DNA of 64,000 nucleotides from Enterobacter phage EC-F2: the sequence record MN508624.2. One strand, given 5' to 3'. The position numbers and the translations under genes are program-made. The notes under the pieces are model-generated. The model was not told the origin of the DNA. It was given only the letters and a program-made list of their open reading frames with translations, and did no database searches. Below, piece after piece: positions 52,796 through 63,534 of this stretch. Numbering within the stretch: position 1 is the first letter of the stretch; every line of letters begins with the position of its first letter.

Positions 52796-53189
52796 AATGG
52801 GTGTTAACCTTCGCTTACTGTATAGCGATATCGATCCCAACTTAACAAAAGACTGGAACAATGACGTAGCCGCCTCGAAAGGGGCGGCAGCGGTAAAGAA
52901 TAGTCTGATCGGTATCGTAACAACACAAAAAGGCACACGGCCTTTCGATAGCAACTTTGGTTGTGAGATCGGGGAACAGATTTTCGAGAACATGAACCCG
53001 CTAACAGCGGAAGCAGTAAGGACTTCGATTGTCTCCGCGATCCGTGCATACGAACCCCGTGTTTACAATCTGGATGTTGAAGTGATTCCGCAGTATGACG
53101 AAAACGCAATCACCGTGACGATTTACTACAGCATCATTGATGAACCGGAAGAAGTAGAAAGAATCAAACTCCAGCTATCATCCTCATAA
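52788..53189 (+). CDS. 25: baseplate wedge protein gp25
   Basis: LLYSDIDPNLTKDWNNDVAASKG...IKNSLIGIVTTQKGTRPFDSNFGCEIGEQIFENMNPLTAEAV...IKLQLSSS is collinear with T4 gp25; 133 aa versus 132 aa. Confidence 0.85.
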   Translation: MDKMGVNLRLLYSDIDPNLTKDWNNDVAASKGAAAVKNSLIGIVTTQKGTRPFDSNFGCEIGEQIFENMNPLTAEAVRTSIVSAIRAYEPRVYNLDVEVIPQYDENAITVTIYYSIIDEPEEVERIKLQLSSS

Positions 53190-54168: not shown

Positions 54169-54243
54169 CTCGTTCCTTTTGGCTGTTCCGTTTCGATATG
54201 TGTAATATAACAAAGCCCTCACGCGAACGCAAGGGCTTTTTTG
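54169..54243 (-). promoter_or_regulatory. PeSL-like cassette on the minus strand: terminator hairpin (agccctcacgcgaacgcaagggct) followed by TTATATT and the conserved leader
   Basis: Reverse complement reads aaaaaagcccttgcgttcgcgtgagggctttgTTATATTACACATATCGAAACGGAACAGCCAAAAGGAACgagaacATG. Confidence 0.55.
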
Positions 54244-55212: not shown

Positions 55213-55349
55213 TACCCCAAACAGATTTTACATTTACAGAGAGGACATTCCGCCTCTTTAACGCGCAAGCGCTTTGTTGCTGTTCGCTTCGCTGTGTTGT
55301 GATCATACACATGCAAACAGCGATAACAGATCACCAATCGTTTAGCCGT
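55213..55349 (-). CDS. possible small zinc-ribbon protein (about 45 aa; not in the ORF table)
   Basis: Minus-strand ATG overlapping the stop of the upstream gene (tATGACGGCTAA); translation MTAKRLVICYRCLHVYDHNTAKRTATKRLRVKEAECPLCKCKICLG has CxxC...CxxCxC. Confidence 0.25.
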
Positions 55350-55809
55350 CATAACCACCACCGCAACGAACATCACCTTCAATGAACAGTTCGCGGTTAT
55401 CTCTCAGGAGATTGTATTTCTTTTCGAGTTCCGGCCCGAATGCGTCCGCGTCGTCATACCAGTCATAGTCATAACTTCCGGTTTCATCGTCGTATTCCGG
55501 TTCGTCGCCGCGCTCATTGAAGTGAACGATTTTAACATCATCCAGATTCAGTTCTTTCAGCTTGTCCCAGATGCGGGTTATTTCGACGCTATTACATCCG
55601 AACGCTTCCAGTGTGATTGTGCCGTCATCGTGTATTTGAGGTAAATCCCAGCGAGGACGAGTATCATCAAACATATCCATCAGAGATTCAACGTTTGACT
55701 CACCGTAAATCTTTGCAACTTCCTGTTCTTTACCAGGGCGGACAAGTCCGACCCCGATGATAAAACTACTGCTTGAGCTATTGCTAACGAACCCAGAACG
55801 AATCTTCAT
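55342..55809 (-). CDS. hypothetical protein, paralog B of the MKIRSGFVSNSSSSSF family (155 aa)
   Basis: N-terminal 17 residues identical to the ORF at 59247-59759; acidic Asp/Tyr/Trp-rich C-terminal half. Confidence 0.5.
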   Translation of the reverse strand: MKIRSGFVSNSSSSSFIIGVGLVRPGKEQEVAKIYGESNVESLMDMFDDTRPRWDLPQIHDDGTITLEAFGCNSVEITRIWDKLKELNLDDVKIVHFNERGDEPEYDDETGSYDYDWYDDADAFGPELEKKYNLLRDNRELFIEGDVRCGGGYDG

Positions 55810-55997
55810 CGTCTTGCCTCATATTTCGCGTTCTCCGCGATTTTCTCATGATACAGGTTGTATGACAACACCAGCGGGATACAAGCTACTATAAGCCCGA
55901 TGATAGCCAGTTGATATTCGCGTTTATCGAACGCCATGAATGTAATCGTAGCGCCCAGAATAAACACACCTAACGCAATGATGAAGAATAATGTCAT
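55806..55997 (-). CDS. small membrane protein (63 aa)
   Basis: Two TM helices; overlapping start and stop. Confidence 0.4.
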   Translation of the reverse strand: MTLFFIIALGVFILGATITFMAFDKREYQLAIIGLIVACIPLVLSYNLYHEKIAENAKYEARR

Positions 55998-56620
55998 TTT
56001 GGCAGGGTATCCATTTCACGAGATTTTGCTTTCAGGATGTCAATCACAGTAGTCATCGCCTGTTCTACATCACCATCATAGTGAATCAGGAATGTTTTGT
56101 GAAGTCCCATGATCAGACGATTGATGATATAAGCCATTTCTGACGGCAACAGTTTACCATTCTGGCGATCGTACTTTCCAAACAAGCGGTAGAGTTCTGC
56201 GCTGTTGCCTGGCTTCTCAATGCTGAAATTATGCATCCCAGACAGAATACCATCCAGATACAGAACAGTTTTGTTATCACTGCGCAGGTGTCCGCCGACC
56301 TTGTAGTAGTTGCTGAATACATACGGTTTTTCGCGGATATCTTCGATATCGAAATCACCATGATCTTCGATGTTGCCAACATGGGCGAAGAAATGATGAT
56401 CTTCCAGTTCGAGAAGGATTGCACCCTTTTTGTATGGGAATCCGACTAAATCGATCTGCCAGCCATTTTCACCGACAAAGACATCATCGACAACCACGAA
56501 ATCCGGCAGCATAGGCGCGTATGCGTGGTTCTTTTCGTTGTTTTCACGATAGGCTTGTGGTTCGGACAGATACAGGATATCGCCTTTTACAACTTCACCC
56601 CAGAATACGTTACGTGACAT
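55994..56620 (-). CDS. hypothetical protein (about 208 aa; start trimmed to the ATG with a GAGG RBS)
   Basis: RBS gaggaaaataatATG immediately downstream of the terminator after the vWA gene. Confidence 0.45.
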   Translation of the reverse strand: MSRNVFWGEVVKGDILYLSEPQAYRENNEKNHAYAPMLPDFVVVDDVFVGENGWQIDLVGFPYKKGAILLELEDHHFFAHVGNIEDHGDFDIEDIREKPYVFSNYYKVGGHLRSDNKTVLYLDGILSGMHNFSIEKPGNSAELYRLFGKYDRQNGKLLPSEMAYIINRLIMGLHKTFLIHYDGDVEQAMTTVIDILKAKSREMDTLPK

Positions 56621-56635
56621 ATTATTTTCCTCAAT

Positions 56636-56661
56636 ATGCCCCCTTTCGGGGGCGGTCATTG
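56636..56661 (-). terminator. terminator hairpin (gcccccgaaagggggc) after the vWA gene
   Basis: Perfect GC hairpin followed by an AU-rich stretch on the minus strand. Confidence 0.4.
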
Positions 56662-58908
56662 TTAGATTTTGACTTCTTTTTCTTCCAGGACGATTTCACA
56701 TTCGAATGATGTGGTTTCCCAGACTTTCCAGAAATCGGATGGAATATTATCTTCTTTCGGAAGAATATCTTTTGCAGCGATAGAAACTTTGGTTTCTTCG
56801 AAGTCCAGATCCGCGAACCATGCATGGGCTACTACAACACCGTACATTACGCGACTTAAACGGGCATTCAGTTTACGGACTTCCTGAATCGTTGCCTTTG
56901 TCTGCTTATCAAGATACTCGACTACCTGATCTTTGTCAAGCGCATCCAGTTCAGATTTCACCTGATCATAAGCCCACAGGATAATCAGGTCGCCGTTGTT
57001 CAGTTTCTTCTTACCTTCTTCACGCTTCGCGACGGTAGCCGCTACAGCAGGAAGGGAGGAAACACCCTTGATTTTCACGTTCAGTTCTTTCGACATGTAA
57101 ACATCAGTCGATTCTGTGCGCTCAACCTTCGGAGAGAACCCGTAATCACGAATACCCTGTTCAGACAGCCATTCACCCGCAGCCTCACCAAAGCGCTGTT
57201 TCAGCCCTTCTGCGTTGCGCAGTCCGATCGCGTTGTCACGGAAGAACTTCATAACCTTCTGACGGCCTTTCAGGATTTCCAGACGCACGTTATCAGTCAC
57301 GAACTCTTTACCGCTTAACCCGCGAGTCATGCCACGGTTAACCAGAGGCAGAGAGGTAAAGTCTACCAGAACAGACATACGATCATCACCGATTTTTTCG
57401 AGCGGCTTGATAGTCAGGCCAGAAGCACGAAGGTTTTTCAGTGTCGGAATATCGGTTTCCAGCGGCAGAACTTTAACGTTCACGATACCATCTTTAACGA
57501 TGGTGAAGTTACGCACCTGCTTAGTTTCGACTTTTTCCGGCAGACCGAATTCTTTCTGTTTGCTTTCTGGGATAGTCACATACCCTTCCAGATCCGTGTT
57601 GATGGAAATGTTCGGACGGGAACTGTTACCCACCAGATGTTTAACCGATACTTTGGTTGTGGTTTGGGTAAATTTCGGTGTCCAGACTTCATGCGCTACC
57701 ATTTGCGCCGCCAGTGCTTTACGTTCTTCTGGGGTTGCAGCGTTTGCGATCTGTTCGGTCAGTTGATCCAGTGTATCATCTTCTTTCTGTACCGTCTGAC
57801 GGCCTGTGCGGTTGTACGCCCAGTGCTCAGAAGACAGGTCGATCACTGTGTCAGTTTGTGCCAGCAGTTCGAGCGCATCAACCAGAGTGAACGCGTTTTC
57901 GTCTGGAACCATGTTGTAATCAATACCATCAACGAAACGCTGTGATGGATCTACAACAGCCTGTGCAATCAGGTCTTTCGCGTTGGAGTAGTCCTGTTTG
58001 GTAAAGCAGTTGTCATACGCCTTGATCAGACGGACATCACCCAGCTTTTGAAGCACTTTCCATGCCAGATCAGGGTTCATTGTGTGCAGTGCATGATAAA
58101 GCACGACATACAGAACTTGCTGTTCGCTGGCGATGTTCGGATCGAAACCGTCAACATCGTTGATCGCGTTTTCACCCAGCGCCCAGATGTTTTTGATGTG
58201 TTCTGGAACCAGCACAACACCGTTTGCAGCGTTCAGGACATACACGCGCCCTTCGTCCAGGTAGATCGCGTGGGTAGCATCAGCAACTTTGACTTCGATA
58301 CGTGCGGAAGTCTGCGCGGTGATGATTTCGTTAAATGCTGGTTCGTATGCGTCGAAACCTTCAACGAATTTGTGCAATGCGTTGGTTGCTTCTGCCATTT
58401 TTTCCAGCAGAGGACGGTTTACATAATAACCGTATTCCAGGAACGCGATACTGTTGAAAGTCAGTGGCAGAACCGCACACGCTTTCAGAATATCATCGGT
58501 ACGCCAGCAGTTATCATAACCATCGGTCAGGAAGATCAGGCTGTTCAGGTTGCCGTTTTCGGATTGCAGATCGGTAGCGATTTCCGCAGCCAGATTCAAC
58601 GGCTCAACAAAGCCAGTACAACCCGTAGGTTTCAGGTAACGGTCGATAGCCGCGCAGATGTTAGACAGGTCAGAGACATTGCTAACCTTCTCACCACGGA
58701 ACACCGTGCCGTAATCGCCTTTGCTGGAGAAGTACAGGATCGAAACGGTGTCATCCTGTTTAACCAGACTCGCCAGGTTTGCTTTCAGGTGTTTACGGAT
58801 CTTAGGCAGTTCGTTGTACATTGAACCGGATACGTCACACACGAAAACGTGGTTTGTCGGGGTTGGCTTCGATACAGCGTTTTTGAATTCGATATTTGTG
58901 ATTGACAT
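56662..58908 (-). CDS. large vWA (von Willebrand factor A) domain protein (748 aa)
   Basis: N-terminal MIDAS motif HVFVCDVSGSM (DxSxS) with a following vWA-like alpha/beta region; the remaining roughly 550 aa have no recognisable motif. Confidence 0.65.
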   Translation of the reverse strand: MSITNIEFKNAVSKPTPTNHVFVCDVSGSMYNELPKIRKHLKANLASLVKQDDTVSILYFSSKGDYGTVFRGEKVSNVSDLSNICAAIDRYLKPTGCTGFVEPLNLAAEIATDLQSENGNLNSLIFLTDGYDNCWRTDDILKACAVLPLTFNSIAFLEYGYYVNRPLLEKMAEATNALHKFVEGFDAYEPAFNEIITAQTSARIEVKVADATHAIYLDEGRVYVLNAANGVVLVPEHIKNIWALGENAINDVDGFDPNIASEQQVLYVVLYHALHTMNPDLAWKVLQKLGDVRLIKAYDNCFTKQDYSNAKDLIAQAVVDPSQRFVDGIDYNMVPDENAFTLVDALELLAQTDTVIDLSSEHWAYNRTGRQTVQKEDDTLDQLTEQIANAATPEERKALAAQMVAHEVWTPKFTQTTTKVSVKHLVGNSSRPNISINTDLEGYVTIPESKQKEFGLPEKVETKQVRNFTIVKDGIVNVKVLPLETDIPTLKNLRASGLTIKPLEKIGDDRMSVLVDFTSLPLVNRGMTRGLSGKEFVTDNVRLEILKGRQKVMKFFRDNAIGLRNAEGLKQRFGEAAGEWLSEQGIRDYGFSPKVERTESTDVYMSKELNVKIKGVSSLPAVAATVAKREEGKKKLNNGDLIILWAYDQVKSELDALDKDQVVEYLDKQTKATIQEVRKLNARLSRVMYGVVVAHAWFADLDFEETKVSIAAKDILPKEDNIPSDFWKVWETTSFECEIVLEEKEVKI

Positions 58909-59247
58909 TTAAATTTTCTCGTATTTGAATTTTTCTAAAATTTCGTTAACTTTATTGCTTACTGCTTCGACTGTACGATCACACCCGAACTTACGCGCCA
59001 GGAGTTCAACGTATTCATCCATCGTAGTGAGTTTGGATTCAGCAACGTCAAACGCAAGCGCATACATTACCGGATTCCATACCCGAACGATTTGGAGAGT
59101 ATACTCGTTCAGTTCAAATCGTTCAAGATATTTTCGCAAAGAAAATACATCAAACGGTGCGGGACGATCCTGGCTAAAGGGGATCGACTCCCCTAATGCA
59201 TAGCGAGGCATAACAACACAAACTTCTGTTTTCAGTTTATTATCCAT
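58909..59247 (-). CDS. hypothetical protein (112 aa)
   Basis: Operon ORF between paralog A and the vWA gene. Confidence 0.4.
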   Translation of the reverse strand: MDNKLKTEVCVVMPRYALGESIPFSQDRPAPFDVFSLRKYLERFELNEYTLQIVRVWNPVMYALAFDVAESKLTTMDEYVELLARKFGCDRTVEAVSNKVNEILEKFKYEKI

Positions 59248-59759
59248 CAGTGATGACTCTTTGATGTGTGTTCAAGGTTGCGGAAGATGTTTCCATGTTC
59301 CAGTTGAGTTCCGATCGGGCCGCATTCATCGGAGTACGTGAATTCATAGATAAACACGCCGTCCTGATTGCCGAACTTCGTGTTGTACTCTTCGTACAAC
59401 CACATTTTGATCAGAGCGTCTTTCTCTTCTGTTTCCAGATCGTACCAGTCTCGCCCGTCATACGCAAGCGCGATTTGAGGGTTTGAACGGTAGCGGGTTT
59501 CCGCGTTTTCTTCGGTTTCCCAGTCATAGCGCTTATCGTCGTAGAACGATTCAAAGCTATTACCCAGATGACCGCCTAAGTCACGATGAACGTGACTGAC
59601 CACTTCTTCCGCTGTCAACGGCGGATCGTAGTAACCACAATCAGGGACGCAATCGCCCATCATTTCGCGCAGGTTGTCGATATTAGTCGGATCTTTCGGG
59701 AACCGGACGATGAAACTACTTGATGAACTGTTGCTCACAAAACCAGAACGGATTTTCAT
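59247..59759 (-). CDS. hypothetical protein, paralog A of the MKIRSGFVSNSSSSSF family (170 aa)
   Basis: N-terminus identical to the ORF at 55342-55809; DNA about 70 percent identical over the first roughly 50 nt. Confidence 0.5.
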   Translation of the reverse strand: MKIRSGFVSNSSSSSFIVRFPKDPTNIDNLREMMGDCVPDCGYYDPPLTAEEVVSHVHRDLGGHLGNSFESFYDDKRYDWETEENAETRYRSNPQIALAYDGRDWYDLETEEKDALIKMWLYEEYNTKFGNQDGVFIYEFTYSDECGPIGTQLEHGNIFRNLEHTSKSHH

Positions 59760-60511: not shown

Positions 60512-60536
60512 GAAAAAAGCCCCTTTCGGGGCTTGA
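60512..60536 (-). terminator. rho-independent terminator (aagcccctttcggggctt)
   Basis: Perfect hairpin plus TTTTTT on the minus strand. Confidence 0.5.
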
Positions 60537-61116: not shown

Positions 61117-62037
61117 TCAATCAGACAGTGCAAGCACTTTTTTAATTTGTTTTGCAATTGCTTCGATCACCGGAACCGAAACAGAGTTCCCTGCCTGTTT
61201 ATATGCTTGCTTCTTGCTTGTCGGGATCTGGAATGAATCTGGGAAGCCCTGCAAGCGGAAACATTCACGCGGGGTTAATCGTCGTGGGTTCTTCCCGTCC
61301 TGTAACACCAGACATTGAACACCGTCCTTGAAGTATTGGGCTGTTATCGTCCCAGTACACACAGAATCGCTTGTGACGGCCTGATAACCGAAACCCTTAC
61401 CGTTTGCCTTATTTCGTTCCTTACGCTCTCTAAAGCCTTTCCATGCGTTATCTGAGAGGGTGAATGAATCATCAGCATCTTCGAGGATGTCGCCTACGCG
61501 TGTAGGTGTACGCGGGGGAACAGGAAATGAAAAGAATACATCATCCAGGAAGCAGACAATAAACACGCGTTCCCGTCTTTGGGGTAGTCCGAAATCCTTT
61601 GTGTTCAGGCGTTGATAGAATACGTTATATCCTTCGGCCTCCAGAAGCCCGTAAATCGTTTTAAACGTCTTCCCCTTGTCATGGGTTAGCAGTTCAGGCA
61701 CGTTCTCAAAGAACAACACACGGGGCTTTTTAGCGCGTATAATGCGGAGGATTTCGAAGAACACCGTACCGCGTACATCATCAAAGCCCAGTTTCAATCC
61801 GGCTTTACTGAACGCCTGACACGGGAACCCCGCGAGCAGGATATCATGATCAGGTACTTTGTTTTCATCAATGGCGAATAGATCACCCTGTAGGTTATCA
61901 TCGCCCCAGTTTTCGATATATGTTTGCTGTGCGAACTTGTCGATTTCAGACGTTAAAAGGCATTCGACACCGCCGAACGCCTTATCAAATCCTAATCGAA
62001 CCCCGCCCACACCAGCGCAGAGGTCAATTATTTTCAT
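61117..62037 (-). CDS. C5-cytosine DNA methyltransferase (Dcm-class, short, 306 aa)
   Basis: Motif I IDLCAGVGG, motif IV GFPCQAFS, motif VI ENV, motif X-like QAGNSVSVPV. Confidence 0.8.
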   Translation of the reverse strand: MKIIDLCAGVGGVRLGFDKAFGGVECLLTSEIDKFAQQTYIENWGDDNLQGDLFAIDENKVPDHDILLAGFPCQAFSKAGLKLGFDDVRGTVFFEILRIIRAKKPRVLFFENVPELLTHDKGKTFKTIYGLLEAEGYNVFYQRLNTKDFGLPQRRERVFIVCFLDDVFFSFPVPPRTPTRVGDILEDADDSFTLSDNAWKGFRERKERNKANGKGFGYQAVTSDSVCTGTITAQYFKDGVQCLVLQDGKNPRRLTPRECFRLQGFPDSFQIPTSKKQAYKQAGNSVSVPVIEAIAKQIKKVLALSD

Positions 62038-62303: not shown

Positions 62304-62536
62304 TCCGTTTTAATACCATGTCGGTATGCGTCAATCCCCAGCGGGGTAATCAGCAACCATGCTTTCGAATTATCGTGATAGCCCGTTACCCTTCGAGCGT
62401 AACCTTTTTGAATCAGGGCATCACGCCCTGATTTGCTGGGTACGTCATCGAAATCTAAGTCTAGCACCTTAGTTGCATATCCGTAAAGTTTATACAGAAC
62501 ATCAATTTCAGCGCCGGACAATTTAGGATACATCAT
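62294..62536 (-). CDS. hypothetical protein (80 aa), possibly wHTH-like
   Basis: Operon ORF; helix-rich basic segment ALIQKGYARRV. Confidence 0.3.
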   Translation of the reverse strand: MMYPKLSGAEIDVLYKLYGYATKVLDLDFDDVPSKSGRDALIQKGYARRVTGYHDNSKAWLLITPLGIDAYRHGIKTEWH

Positions 62537-63534
62537 TTGTAATACCCCACAACATGATCGCGGTATACGCGTTCGATGAAATCGTTCCAGAATTCGCGGT
62601 CAACTTCTTTCGGATATGTTGAAATCGCTGCAAGCCGTTCGACTTCGCCCATGACTTCTTCCAGCTTTTCCTGTACGGTTGCGAACGGTACACCGCCAGC
62701 TTTAACCAGTTTCAGGAATGCGCTATCAGGCAGAGGATAAACGATATCACCATCTTTGTAAATCTGGATCAACTGCATACCACCGCGTAAAGCGTGACTT
62801 AAAGCCTTCCAGTCGATGCCGTTGTTGGCTTCTGCTTGTCGTGCGCGTTCTCCGTATTCATCCCAGAGTTTATACACAGACTTACGCATTTCATCGGCTT
62901 TGATCGTGAACTGGAATTTACGCCCCAGCACTTCATAGAAGTCCTGACAACCAGATTTCATTGTCGTGTCGGTAACGAATCGACAGAACTCGTTTGTAGG
63001 GAAACGATCCTTGATGTCAGACACTTTCACTTCACGCGTATAGCGTTTCATATCTGGTGTGAATTCCTGAATACCACCGATCGTTTCGGTTTCTTTCAGT
63101 ACATCGACAACTTCGCGCAGTGCAGCCAGTCGGGAACCCTTCACGCCATATTTCGCGGCTTGCTTACGAACATAACCGAACAAGCCAGTTAGTTCAGTGG
63201 TGTAAAAACGCCAGCGGTTAGCGCGGATATACTGCCAGATTTCAGAGTTAGCGATCAGCTTGTCATCCGAAGCGTGAAGCATATCGAGCGCTACGGTATC
63301 ACCATCACACGCAAGACTAATGAACTTAGTCAGACTATACAACTGACGGTCAACGTCGTCTACGGTGTTTTTAGAGCTTTTATCGCCTGTGCTGGTGTCA
63401 ATAGTCTTCGGGGCTTTCCCCAGGAGAATATCGCGCGGGTGCGGGAGAAAGATCCCTTTATAGTCTTTGTCGCTTGTCGGTGTGTTCAGTCCGTACAGGT
63501 GAGAACCGAACACGGTTTCCATTACAGTTTTCAA
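62533..63534 (-). CDS. Pol-beta-superfamily nucleotidyltransferase-fold protein (333 aa)
   Basis: N-terminal hG[GS]x9-13Dx[DE] pattern FGSHLYGLNTPTSDKDYKG with a later acidic strand VALDML; the remainder is helical. Confidence 0.55.
   Translation of the reverse strand: MKTVMETVFGSHLYGLNTPTSDKDYKGIFLPHPRDILLGKAPKTIDTSTGDKSSKNTVDDVDRQLYSLTKFISLACDGDTVALDMLHASDDKLIANSEIWQYIRANRWRFYTTELTGLFGYVRKQAAKYGVKGSRLAALREVVDVLKETETIGGIQEFTPDMKRYTREVKVSDIKDRFPTNEFCRFVTDTTMKSGCQDFYEVLGRKFQFTIKADEMRKSVYKLWDEYGERARQAEANNGIDWKALSHALRGGMQLIQIYKDGDIVYPLPDSAFLKLVKAGGVPFATVQEKLEEVMGEVERLAAISTYPKEVDREFWNDFIERVYRDHVVGYYK

Follow-up and report, generated by a model that had tools for sequence, protein, structure and literature searches.

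A short N-terminal tag on unrelated small phage proteins, found at a vWA gene locus of Enterobacter phage EC-F2, is genomically coupled to a radical-SAM/SPASM enzyme family

Comparative sequence analysis shows that a very large and unannotated group of small phage proteins, which combine one N-terminal tag with many unrelated bodies, is genomically coupled to a single family of radical-SAM/SPASM enzymes. This coupling appears to be undescribed and is directly testable. Two members of the tag family are encoded in the window, i.e. the whole stretch of 64,000 nucleotides of phage EC-F2 (MN508624.2) that was analysed. They are located at both ends of a block of six tightly packed minus-strand ORFs (55342-59759), all found at the positions given in an initial annotation of this DNA, with gene boundaries that overlap or abut. 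The features of the locus are:

60517-60534, minus strand: terminator-like hairpin, lying upstream of the run of genes to which the cassette belongs
59709-59759, minus strand: tag, codons 1-17 of the A-type protein, same peptide as at 55759-55809
59247-59759, minus strand: tag-family protein, A-type, 170 aa, with N-terminal tag MKIRSGFVSNSSSSSF
58909-59247, minus strand: 112-aa protein (phrog_7677, E 3e-60)
58822-58836, minus strand: MIDAS motif D25-V-S-G-S29, conservation followed in 46 homologues
56662-58908, minus strand: 748-aa vWA protein, MIDAS vWA domain at the N-terminus
56639-56654, minus strand: GC hairpin GCCCCCGAAAGGGGGC, intergenic, from the vWA stop to the ribosome-binding site of the next gene
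55994-56620, minus strand: 208-aa protein, ATG at 56620; the whole ORF has 221 aa (55994-56659)
55806-55997, minus strand: 63-aa protein with two hydrophobic segments (phrog_7160, E 1e-38)
55759-55809, minus strand: tag, codons 1-17 of the 155-aa protein, same peptide as at 59709-59759
55342-55809, minus strand: tag-family protein, second type, 155 aa, tag identical to that of the A-type, ends GGGYDG
54212-54239, minus strand: terminator-like hairpin, downstream of the cassette

The 170-aa and 155-aa proteins are identical over their first 17 residues, MKIRSGFVSNSSSSSFI, an identity that cannot arise by chance. The two tag-coding DNA copies differ at 11 of 51 bases (78% identical). Every change is synonymous, one of them being an AGC/TCA switch between serine codon families, which indicates that the identity of the tag is old and has been upheld by selection on the peptide. 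Past residue 17, BLASTP of the flanking proteins against each other yielded nothing significant, and when the body profiles of the two subfamilies were aligned with hhalign the probability was 0.1 %. Judged by these alignments, the flanking genes are not duplicates but two different members of one tag family. They had been annotated initially as paralogs with acidic Tyr/Asp/Trp-rich tails. The shared N-terminus is real and conserved in ~174 phage genomes, whereas the bodies have no detectable kinship; the acidic stretches do exist, but they are internal rather than tails and cannot be aligned with each other. The A-type protein has a helical variable middle followed by a conserved C-terminal YSDxxG...LEHGNIFRN...SHH motif. 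The match of the 155-aa protein to phrog_7397 is limited to the tag (residues 1-20), and Gly-rich endings like its GGGYDG occur in other tag-family clusters.

Recent mobilisation or recombination of the vWA cassette had also been suggested, its ends being taken for one duplicated gene. The identical N-termini at both ends of the block and its position in a variable region of the genomes of T4-like phages are in line with such a model, but the purely synonymous divergence of the tag DNA and the unrelated bodies of the end genes argue against it. Direct or inverted DNA repeats flanking the block were not found. Within the RB43/Karam/Slopek clade the block keeps its synteny and is conserved by vertical descent, with its gene order kept at 84-99% identity across 176 records. 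In other phages, namely Ackermannviridae, Rhizobium phages and three metagenomic lineages, the vWA gene occurs without these flanks. The mobile-module model is thereby largely refuted and retains a very small probability. The locus would rather be a run of translationally coupled accessory genes that the T4-like phages of the RB43/Karam/Slopek clade have inherited vertically.

The tag consensus is M-K-x-R-x-G-F-V-S-N-S-S-S-S-S-F, 16 residues that are always found at the extreme N-terminus. Homologues recognised by full-length similarity, down to 29% identity, all keep R4, G6, F7-S14 and F16. Every tag Ser position makes use of both serine codon families, and F7-[V/I]8-[S/T]9 is present in all tag members. 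Disorder is predicted for tag residues 1-10, as expected of an enzyme-accessible tail. A profile search yielded 9,766 tag-family representatives (50% identity clustering, E<=1e-3). Scanning IMG/VR with the tag pattern revealed at least 120 stretches with up to 6 tag copies per stretch, and a scan of GTDB genomes revealed 92 stretches. Tag genes often occur in tandem arrays, the largest with 13 copies on one contig. Of 229 unique complete members on viral contigs, the 214 with at least 60 aa were clustered by BLAST, and their bodies form 85 clusters or more. None of 104 tag-family representatives matches a Pfam family, and no NCBIfam family covers tag proteins. In bacterial operons the same tag is found as a single-copy gene with the enzyme adjoining. 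Next to the tag and enzyme genes of bacterial isolates lie an Avs-like protease-STAND gene and an MBL-fold gene, joined in one case by SIR2-HerA.

By far the commonest neighbour of tag genes is a radical-SAM protein of ~345 aa, present at 45 loci, compared to 8 loci for the runner-up non-tag neighbour cluster. Of the 120 viral tag-scan loci listed, 44 carry the enzyme, as do 45 of the 92 prokaryotic loci of the independent GTDB set. The enzyme gene and the tag gene closest to it are separated by a median of 479 bp and lie on the same strand in 40/40 pairs. Enzyme homologues of any kind occur in 193 of 50,697 phage records, a background rate from which an enrichment near tag genes of more than 100-fold follows. 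Isolated phages harbour 170 full-length enzyme homologues, compared to 174 phages with an A-type protein in the same genera, and the per-genus counts of both match closely; isolate phages outside the RB43/Karam/Slopek clade yielded no full-length enzyme homologue. In the phage clade of EC-F2 the enzyme gene is located ~20 kb from the cassette, outside the window (in GAP161 at 90206-91375, with the cassette at 65672-70669), and no tag genes were found within 9 kb of it in this clade. About half of the tag loci have no enzyme inside the short stretch covered, and none was found within 16 kb of the 13-gene array (L004).

Both the radical-SAM core (PF04055) and the SPASM domain (PF13186) are matched in the enzyme family, and the conserved cysteines are present (A4). 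Bacterial enzymes score 31.6-38.7 against the SPASM model TIGR04085 (cut-off 27); the GAP161 enzyme remains just under this cut-off (24.5), and its close homologues carry precomputed PF13186 matches. The nearest named relatives, among the matches listed, are the peptide maturases WgkB, MftC, GeoRSP and SkfB, with scores that are all far under the equivalog cut-offs. Inspection of the consensus did not reveal an RRE (peptide-recognition) domain in the short N-terminal region of the enzyme.

In the best reading of these data the flanking proteins would be substrates of the radical-SAM enzyme, or its docking partners. The best explanation of the locus, which is considered moderately probable, is that of a vertical accessory run in which the enzyme modifies the tag, and the 170-aa and 155-aa proteins would be enzyme-matured effectors with different bodies, involved in phage-host conflict. 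Most likely, a single radical-SAM enzyme would recognise the flexible tag and modify it through radical chemistry. Candidate reactions are an aromatic-to-C-beta cross-link on F7-V8-S9, epimerisation of Ser/Asn, and oxidation of Ser to formylglycine. The link between enzyme and tag is genomic in all its parts, a point that counts against the substrate reading. SPASM and twitch enzymes also act on small molecules, as is known for BtrN, MoaA and NirJ, so that the tag proteins may not be substrates but partners. The tag might thus be a docking peptide with which interchangeable specificity or adaptor subunits bind a shared enzyme via their N-terminus and direct it to targets, or, in a variant, the tag proteins might bind the small-molecule product of the enzyme. 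The same genomic coupling serves the docking and substrate readings equally, and docking is also favoured by the bodies being folded, diverse domains and not peptides. However, an invariant Ser/Asn/Phe-rich terminal tail, tandem multicopy genes and a co-oriented SPASM enzyme together form the classic pattern of a maturase and its targets, reportedly set out by Haft and Basu in 2011. The same pattern is displayed by FxSxx systems (PMC7159879). The closest named enzymes being peptide maturases also argues against docking, which, with its variant, is regarded as rather unlikely.

In T4-type phages, the internal proteins of T4 (IPI-III, Alt) likewise combine hypervariable bodies with a conserved N-terminal peptide, in their case a shared capsid-targeting sequence, and have a role in host conflict. 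By this likeness, and by its constant position at the extreme N-terminus, the tag could be a sorting signal for capsid packaging or for export, its association with the radical-SAM enzyme being incidental. Residues 1-17 of either protein lack Glu, and hence an L/I-x-E prohead-protease site, and the tag is too weakly hydrophobic for a Sec signal. Moreover, unlike the T4 internal proteins, the tag is coupled to the enzyme, a linkage far too strong for coincidence, and it also occurs beside the enzyme in bacterial single-copy operons, which makes sorting very improbable.

With maturation of the tag as the preferred reading, several known systems can be compared. Maturation by SPASM enzymes at the protein level is known from the anaerobic sulfatase-maturating enzyme, acting on sulfatases, and from QhpD, acting on QhpC. 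As proposed for the tag, the target is a short motif of a folded protein and not a released peptide. The sulfatase motif (C/S-x-P-x-R), however, is unlike the tag, tag loci have no sulfatase or quinoprotein context, and the anSME model is absent among the NCBIfam matches listed for tag-linked enzymes. Glycyl-radical proteins have an R-V-x-G-[FYW] fingerprint and a PflA-type activase lacking SPASM. Tag proteins were rejected as candidates for this class: in the R-x-G-F of the tag the Arg is one residue nearer to the Gly, and they are partnered by a SPASM-type enzyme with peptide maturases as its listed relatives. Loci of RiPP radical-SAM/SPASM maturases resemble tag loci in having a co-oriented adjoining enzyme and several tandem genes with a common motif. 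Triceptide cyclophane synthases act on aromatic-X-X motifs (PMC11499958), a pattern that fits F7-V8-S9 of the tag. Whereas RiPPs have a conserved leader and a variable core, the arrangement is reversed in the tag family, the presumed modified part being conserved and a whole domain variable; the lack of a recognisable RRE domain in the consensus of the tag-linked enzyme is another difference.

FxSxx-COOH/radical-SAM-SPASM (Fxs) modules have been described as attached to vWA- and STAND-containing 'ternary' conflict systems (Kaur, Burroughs, Iyer and Aravind 2020; PMC7159879). Fxs and tag systems share a SPASM-type radical-SAM enzyme and small, fast-diverging proteins that keep one short motif with F-x-S in it, and in both vWA and STAND proteins are associated in conflict loci. 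The phage motif is N-terminal, with F-x-S-x-x at residues 7-11, while the Fxs motif is C-terminal; furthermore, the tag has 16 residues and heads folded proteins of 90-300 aa, and it is carried mostly by phages, where the genes form tandem arrays. The neighbours of tag genes include no recurrent peptidase that could correspond to the zincin peptidase of Fxs, and the Fxs-family model gave no match among the NCBIfam matches listed (bacterial enzymes: best 25).

The 748-aa protein was initially annotated as bearing a MIDAS vWA domain, and this is borne out by Pfam scores and conserved MIDAS residues. Residues 21-176 match three Pfam vWA models, each exceeding its cut-off only narrowly: PF13768 (28.7, cut-off 27), PF13519 (27.4, cut-off 27) and PF00092 (26.1, cut-off 23.8). 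The MIDAS is complete (D25-x-S27-x-S29, T98, D129); across 46 homologues T98 and D129 are invariant, and conservation reaches at least 90% at D25, S27 and S29. The domain has an alpha/beta Rossmann-like fold, which can be superposed on vWA domains of solved structure, and together with a beta-sandwich it makes up ~aa 1-245, followed by a helical and beta-rich region of ~500 aa. A vWA domain with an attached beta-sandwich is also found in ArnB and in the trunk-plus-sandwich modules of Sec23-Sec24, and by this analogy we infer that the phage protein may be a protein-binding scaffold. Compared to ArnB, Sec23-Sec24 and ITIH heavy chains, it lacks an FHA or zinc-finger partner and a secretion signal, and no structural or sequence relatives were recognised for its C-terminal ~500 residues. 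In the proteome of a Vi01-like phage just one peptide was detected for the 'VWA domain-containing protein' gp185 (PMC10892097), probably a homologue of the 748-aa protein. The latter, at the centre of the locus, would be cytoplasmic and non-virion, with an N-terminal vWA domain competent for metal binding at its MIDAS. Partners of the MoxR, TerY or ternary-system type, evoked in the initial annotation, are not annotated nearby: in the near-identical phage UPEC03 neither a MoxR-type AAA+ ATPase gene nor the PP2C phosphatase or Ser/Thr kinase of a TerY-P triad is annotated within 8 kb. The six cassette proteins have no AAA+ Pfam match, and no phosphatase or kinase Pfam matches were found among them.

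The functional link between the vWA protein and the tag proteins is weak, and binding of the two tag proteins by the vWA protein is weakly supported. It has been considered that the cassette encodes one complex, in which the MIDAS binds both tag proteins (via tag or acidic stretches) and the 112-, 208- and 63-aa proteins complete the machine. This could account for the close packing of genes with overlapping or abutting boundaries and for their constant order throughout the clade; also, an unrelated 307-kb contig has a divergent vWA homologue 3 kb from two tag genes, and DUF2828/DUF7788 vWA-like genes adjoin 4 tag arrays. However, full-length, MIDAS-intact vWA proteins occur in ~300 Ackermannviridae and other phages in which tblastn revealed neither A-type protein nor enzyme. 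In Vi01 and one Rhizobium phage, the two isolated phages scanned outside the clade, no tag motif was found up to 6 kb from the vWA gene. Three metagenomic vWA contigs, those among the vWA genes lacking tag neighbours around which the enzyme profile was run, have neither tag gene nor enzyme within 10 kb. Most tag arrays lack a vWA gene, and the 112-aa, 208-aa and 63-aa genes are limited to one clade. A single complex is therefore a doubtful proposition.

More broadly, it is tentatively suggested that the coupling represents an unrecognised viral protein-maturation system, in which each genome encodes dozens of unrelated effector bodies headed by an invariant N-terminal tag, and one SPASM enzyme places a radical-derived modification on this tag. 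If true, the tag system serves as a diversifying arsenal for phages from many bacterial phyla, and perhaps for archaeal viruses, and has a single-copy counterpart built into Avs-like STAND defence loci of bacteria; in EC-F2 the vWA protein would be the scaffold where both matured effectors act.

Among the remaining genes of the block, the start of the 112-aa gene overlaps the stop of the upstream gene; this gene is confined to RB43/Karam/Slopek-like loci and its product matched no Pfam family. The hairpin at 56639-56654 lacks a T-run, which rules it out as a canonical terminator, and the hairpin at 54212-54239 may be the end of the transcription unit. The true start of the 221-aa ORF is almost certainly the ATG at 56620, giving a product of 208 aa, since a GAGG Shine-Dalgarno precedes it and phrog_7309 covers residues 14-221. 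The 208-aa gene is restricted to the T4-like clade. Both hydrophobic segments of the 63-aa protein probably span the membrane.

All six ORFs listed in the initial annotation were found on the minus strand with the boundaries it gave, among them the gene for the 748-aa vWA protein (56662-58908). The first 17 residues of the two flanking proteins (170 aa, 59247-59759; 155 aa, 55342-55809) are indeed identical. This shared N-terminus, the tag, is the most informative feature of the finding and reveals a large, apparently undescribed family of radical-SAM-linked proteins. The observation is confirmed, but its reading as duplicated flanks of a mobile or recombining cassette is not. Between the two flanking genes 11 of the 51 tag-coding bases differ, every one synonymously and including an AGC/TCA switch between both serine codon families, which indicates an ancient split in which strong selection preserved the peptide, rather than a recent duplication or a recombination joint. 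Beyond residue 17 BLASTP yielded no significant match between the two proteins, the body profiles of their subfamilies are unrelated (hhalign probability 0.1%), and no direct or inverted DNA repeats were found bordering the cassette.

The tag heads a family of small proteins in which it is invariant and the bodies are diverse. Among homologues of the 170-aa protein (A-type) found by full-length similarity, R4, G6, F7, V8, S9, N10, S11-S14 and F16 are invariant down to 29% identity; a second conserved element, C-terminal YSDxxG...LEHGNIFRN...SHH, is separated from the tag by a variable middle of 60-170 residues. Inspection of the contigs of these homologues revealed the tag on many further, unrelated bodies, and tag genes in tandem: a 188-kb phage contig carries four, and a 40.7-kb contig 13 or more in a stretch of 8 kb. 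Scanned with a degenerate DNA pattern encoding M-K-x-R-x-G-F-V-S-N-S-S-S-S-S-F, IMG/VR yielded at least 120 stretches, with up to six copies each and mostly on contigs of 30-550 kb. From GTDB species-representative genomes the pattern recovered 92 stretches, mostly MAG contigs, representing many bacterial phyla and several archaeal bins, with Acetatifactor, Veillonella and Lachnobacterium as isolates. Some tag positions were fixed by the construction of the pattern; those at which it allowed Ser, Thr, Cys, Trp or Arg are 80-100% Ser, with Thr as nearly the sole alternative and both Ser codon families used at each. The unique complete tag proteins from viral contigs (n = 229) have a median length of 131 aa, and the 214 of at least 60 aa form at least 85 body clusters. 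Body types include a CxxC zinc-ribbon-like one and several ending in Gly-rich turns such as GGYNG and GAGRNG, which the 155-aa protein of the window, ending in GGGYDG, resembles.

Matches of the A-type family profile to 1.84 billion cluster representatives (50% identity clustering)
E 1e-3: 9,766 proteins
E 1e-10: 2,087 proteins
E 1e-30: 621 proteins

With nearly ten thousand representatives, the tag ranks with the most strictly conserved short motifs of phage accessory genes. None of 104 diverse family representatives matches any Pfam family, NCBIfam has no model for the family, PHROGs holds only phrog_7397 ('unknown function'), and a literature search on the motif and on radical-SAM enzymes in a phage context found no description. 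Residues 75-146 of the 155-aa protein, an acid-rich stretch, match phrog_132 'head-tail adaptor' (E 1e-8), as do, among the 104 representatives, only its two orthologues. The match was treated as unreliable and the label is probably wrong; it is the probable origin of 'head-tail adaptor' and 'minor tail protein' as names for these genes in Klebsiella phage records PP889464 and PP889466. Unrelated bodies from many loci (L007-L220) were also seen to end in recurrent C-terminal motifs (GGYNG, GAGRNG, GTRSC, SEGGY, IGGW, SHH), and therefore the extreme C-terminus may adjoin the tag in the fold or join in the same reaction.

Tag genes are linked to the gene of one enzyme family. ORFs of at least 150 aa were clustered around the viral matches of the tag scan and two loci retrieved earlier. 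The commonest non-tag neighbour, present in 45 loci compared to 8 for the next non-tag cluster, is a ~345-aa radical-SAM enzyme (PF04055) with a C-terminal SPASM/twitch iron-sulfur domain (PF13186) and conserved cysteines; bacterial members exceed the cut-off of TIGR04085. A 339-aa neighbour in one tag array (L004; DUF8385) was ruled out as this enzyme. Where both genes are present, a median of 479 bp separates the enzyme gene from the nearest tag gene, and every one of the 40 pairs is co-oriented. Among the matches listed, the enzyme occurs in 44 of 120 tag-scan loci (37%), rising to 56% where the locus spans 12 kb or more. In the GTDB set, which is independent, it was found in 45 of 92 loci, each no longer than 8 kb. 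Any enzyme homologue at all was detected in only 193 of 50,697 isolated phage genomes. The 170 full-length homologues and the 174 A-type-bearing phages are spread over one and the same set of genera, in closely similar numbers per genus (Klebsiella, Enterobacter, Cronobacter, Citrobacter, Escherichia, Raoultella and Buttiauxella phages of the RB43/Karam/Slopek clade). The 64-kb window itself contains no radical-SAM gene. In Cronobacter phage GAP161 the relevant features are:

65672-70669, the cassette
90206-91375, GAP161_155, annotated 'putative radical SAM protein'

From this spacing, the enzyme gene in the phage of the window should lie ~20 kb past the right end of the window. No tag genes lie within 9 kb of the enzyme gene in GAP161. 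Clustering at 90% identity divides the enzyme family into at least 1,759 groups, whose members bear generic names only. Its nearest named relatives are maturases of peptides or proteins (WgkB, MftC, GeoRSP, KxxxW, SkfB), all far under the equivalog cut-offs.

In the favoured reading the enzyme would recognise the exposed tag and modify it. An adjacent co-oriented enzyme gene, multicopy targets and one shared short motif form the pattern by which radical-SAM/SPASM maturases are matched to the proteins they act on. The closest precedent is the module of an FxSxx-COOH peptide and a radical-SAM/SPASM enzyme, which accompanies vWA and STAND ternary systems (PMC7159879). Triceptide synthases introduce cross-links at aromatic-X-X motifs (PMC11499958), a pattern with which F7-V8-S9 of the tag agrees; oxidation of Ser or an epimerisation would be just as compatible. 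A reading of the tag as a glycyl-radical motif was rejected, the Arg spacing being wrong and the enzyme being of the SPASM type. The main rival to modification, likewise compatible with the data, is that the tag serves as a docking peptide and the bodies as adaptors. The link to a single enzyme family makes hundreds of 'hypothetical' phage genes a testable enzyme-substrate system, from which new radical chemistry on whole proteins could emerge.

The setting of the bacterial counterparts is one of defence or conflict. Isolates of Acetatifactor, Veillonella and Lachnobacterium, and MAGs of Sulfuricurvum, encode a single tag protein of 137-139 aa (MKIRNGFVTNSSSTSF...FNG-IGGW) in a conserved gene set with the order ~140-aa protein, tag protein, radical-SAM/SPASM enzyme, ~310-aa protein. 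A trypsin-like-protease/STAND NTPase matching Avs2 models precedes the set in three of these genera, joined in Acetatifactor and Veillonella by an MBL-fold protein matching Avs1a/LmuA models, and one Sulfuricurvum tag locus adjoins SIR2-HerA. Loci with this gene set are L161:503-7517 and also L129, L144, L158, L184, L183 and L176; the ~310-aa protein has an M1E1E6-like C-terminus. This gene set may be an undescribed defence system and, because the bacterial copies adjoin Avs-like sensors, the tag/enzyme system is probably part of the phage-host arms race.

Three Pfam vWA models match residues 21-176 of the 748-aa protein, each slightly over cut-off. In an alignment that takes in 46 full-length homologues, the most distant at 32% identity, the MIDAS residues D25, S27 and S29 are conserved in at least 90%, and T98 and D129 are invariant; for the remaining 450-500 residues no match was found by fold or sequence. 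Among isolated phages, 503 genomes encode a full-length homologue. Outside the T4-like clade they include essentially the Ackermannviridae (Vi01, CBA120-like, Dickeya, Serratia and Erwinia phages; 45-51% identity), Rhizobium Pootjesviridae (24%) and Shewanella, Vibrio, Aeromonas and Bacillus phages. In the proteome of a Vi01-like phage one peptide was found for the 'VWA domain-containing protein' gp185, probably a homologue, versus hundreds for structural proteins (PMC10892097), from which it was concluded that the vWA protein is not part of the virion. No MoxR ATPase, kinase, phosphatase or STAND gene lies near the vWA gene. Genes of nucleotide metabolism and RNA repair (Rnl1, PNKP, RtcB, Td, RNR) surround it in other lineages. 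Distant homologues lie beside RNA-repair genes in L222:5229-7275 and L223:3696-4820, with T4-type RNA ligase 1 and PNKP on one contig and RtcB on the other, which hints at a link of the family to RNA repair or anticodon-nuclease countermeasures. On a 31-kb phage contig two IS605-type OrfB/TnpB (Cas12f-like) genes are inserted directly downstream of a vWA homologue (L221:12381-16623); this contig also encodes DUF7788 and DUF2201 vWA-like proteins. A 673-aa ORF of loci L002/L003 tested negative as a vWA homologue. All that can be said of the 748-aa protein is that it is a predicted intracellular, MIDAS-dependent binding protein.

A direct functional link between the vWA protein and the tag proteins is unlikely. 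It would agree with the co-transcription-like packing and the gene order kept in the RB43/Karam/Slopek clade, with an unrelated 307-kb contig on which a divergent vWA homologue and two tag genes are 3 kb apart, and with the TROVE-like DUF2828/DUF7788 vWA proteins adjoining four tag arrays. However, A-type tag protein and enzyme were undetected by tblastn in ~300 Ackermannviridae and other phages with an intact vWA family, and neither tag nor enzyme lies within 10 kb in three further metagenomic vWA contexts. The 13-gene tag array of L004:3636-16084 (JGI 3300033075 Ga0364574_11282) stands between genes for a 510-aa DUF2828/DUF7788 (TROVE/vWA-like) protein and an 831-aa major-vault-protein-like protein (Vault_3, MVP_shoulder); in L011, L064 and L132, too, tag genes have a DUF2828-type neighbour, and in L025 and L032 an MVP-like one.

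The region is 97.5-99% identical in ~30 RB43/Karam-type T4-like phages (including Enterobacter phage HK6, GAP161 and Escherichia phage UPEC03) and 80-90% identical in ~130 Slopekvirus-type Klebsiella phages. The cassette genes are already public, as hypothetical proteins, in ~176 genomes, and PADLOC gave no significant match for the six proteins. ORF boundaries overlap or abut (59756/59759; 59247; 58908/58909; 55994-55997; 55806-55809), with a single intergenic gap, and the cassette lies in a run of ~12 small genes:

60517-60534 (-), terminator-like hairpin on one side of the run
56621-56661 (-), the single intergenic gap, with a GC hairpin and a GAGG ribosome-binding site, then ATG at 56620
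56639-56654 (-), the GC hairpin GCCCCCGAAAGGGGGC, perfect 6-bp stem and GAAA tetraloop, immediately ahead of the site where ribosomes bind for the 208-aa protein
54212-54239 (-), terminator-like hairpin on the other side of the run
gene 25 (baseplate wedge), ending at 53189, on the strand opposite to the cassette

Because GAGG precedes ATG 56620, the '221-aa' ORF almost certainly encodes 208 aa, as initially guessed and as annotated in public records. The GC hairpin is without a T-run and may be an element of mRNA stability or translational control. Upstream of the cassette lie genes for a C5 cytosine methyltransferase-like protein (306 aa, 61117-62037, minus strand), so annotated in UPEC03, and a 333-aa protein (62533-63534, minus strand) matching the RlaP family (PF10127, E 1e-10). 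RlaP is the RNA-ligase-associated Pol-beta nucleotidyltransferase; its gene is located 3.6 kb upstream of the vWA gene. The counterpart in UPEC03 is labelled 'thioredoxin', a label that is corrected here together with 'minor tail protein' and 'head-tail adaptor'. RlaP-like genes were observed near tag genes in 7 viral loci, and NAD-salvage genes recur around tag arrays (NAD synthase, NAMPT, PRPP-synthetase-like; NadM in UPEC03).
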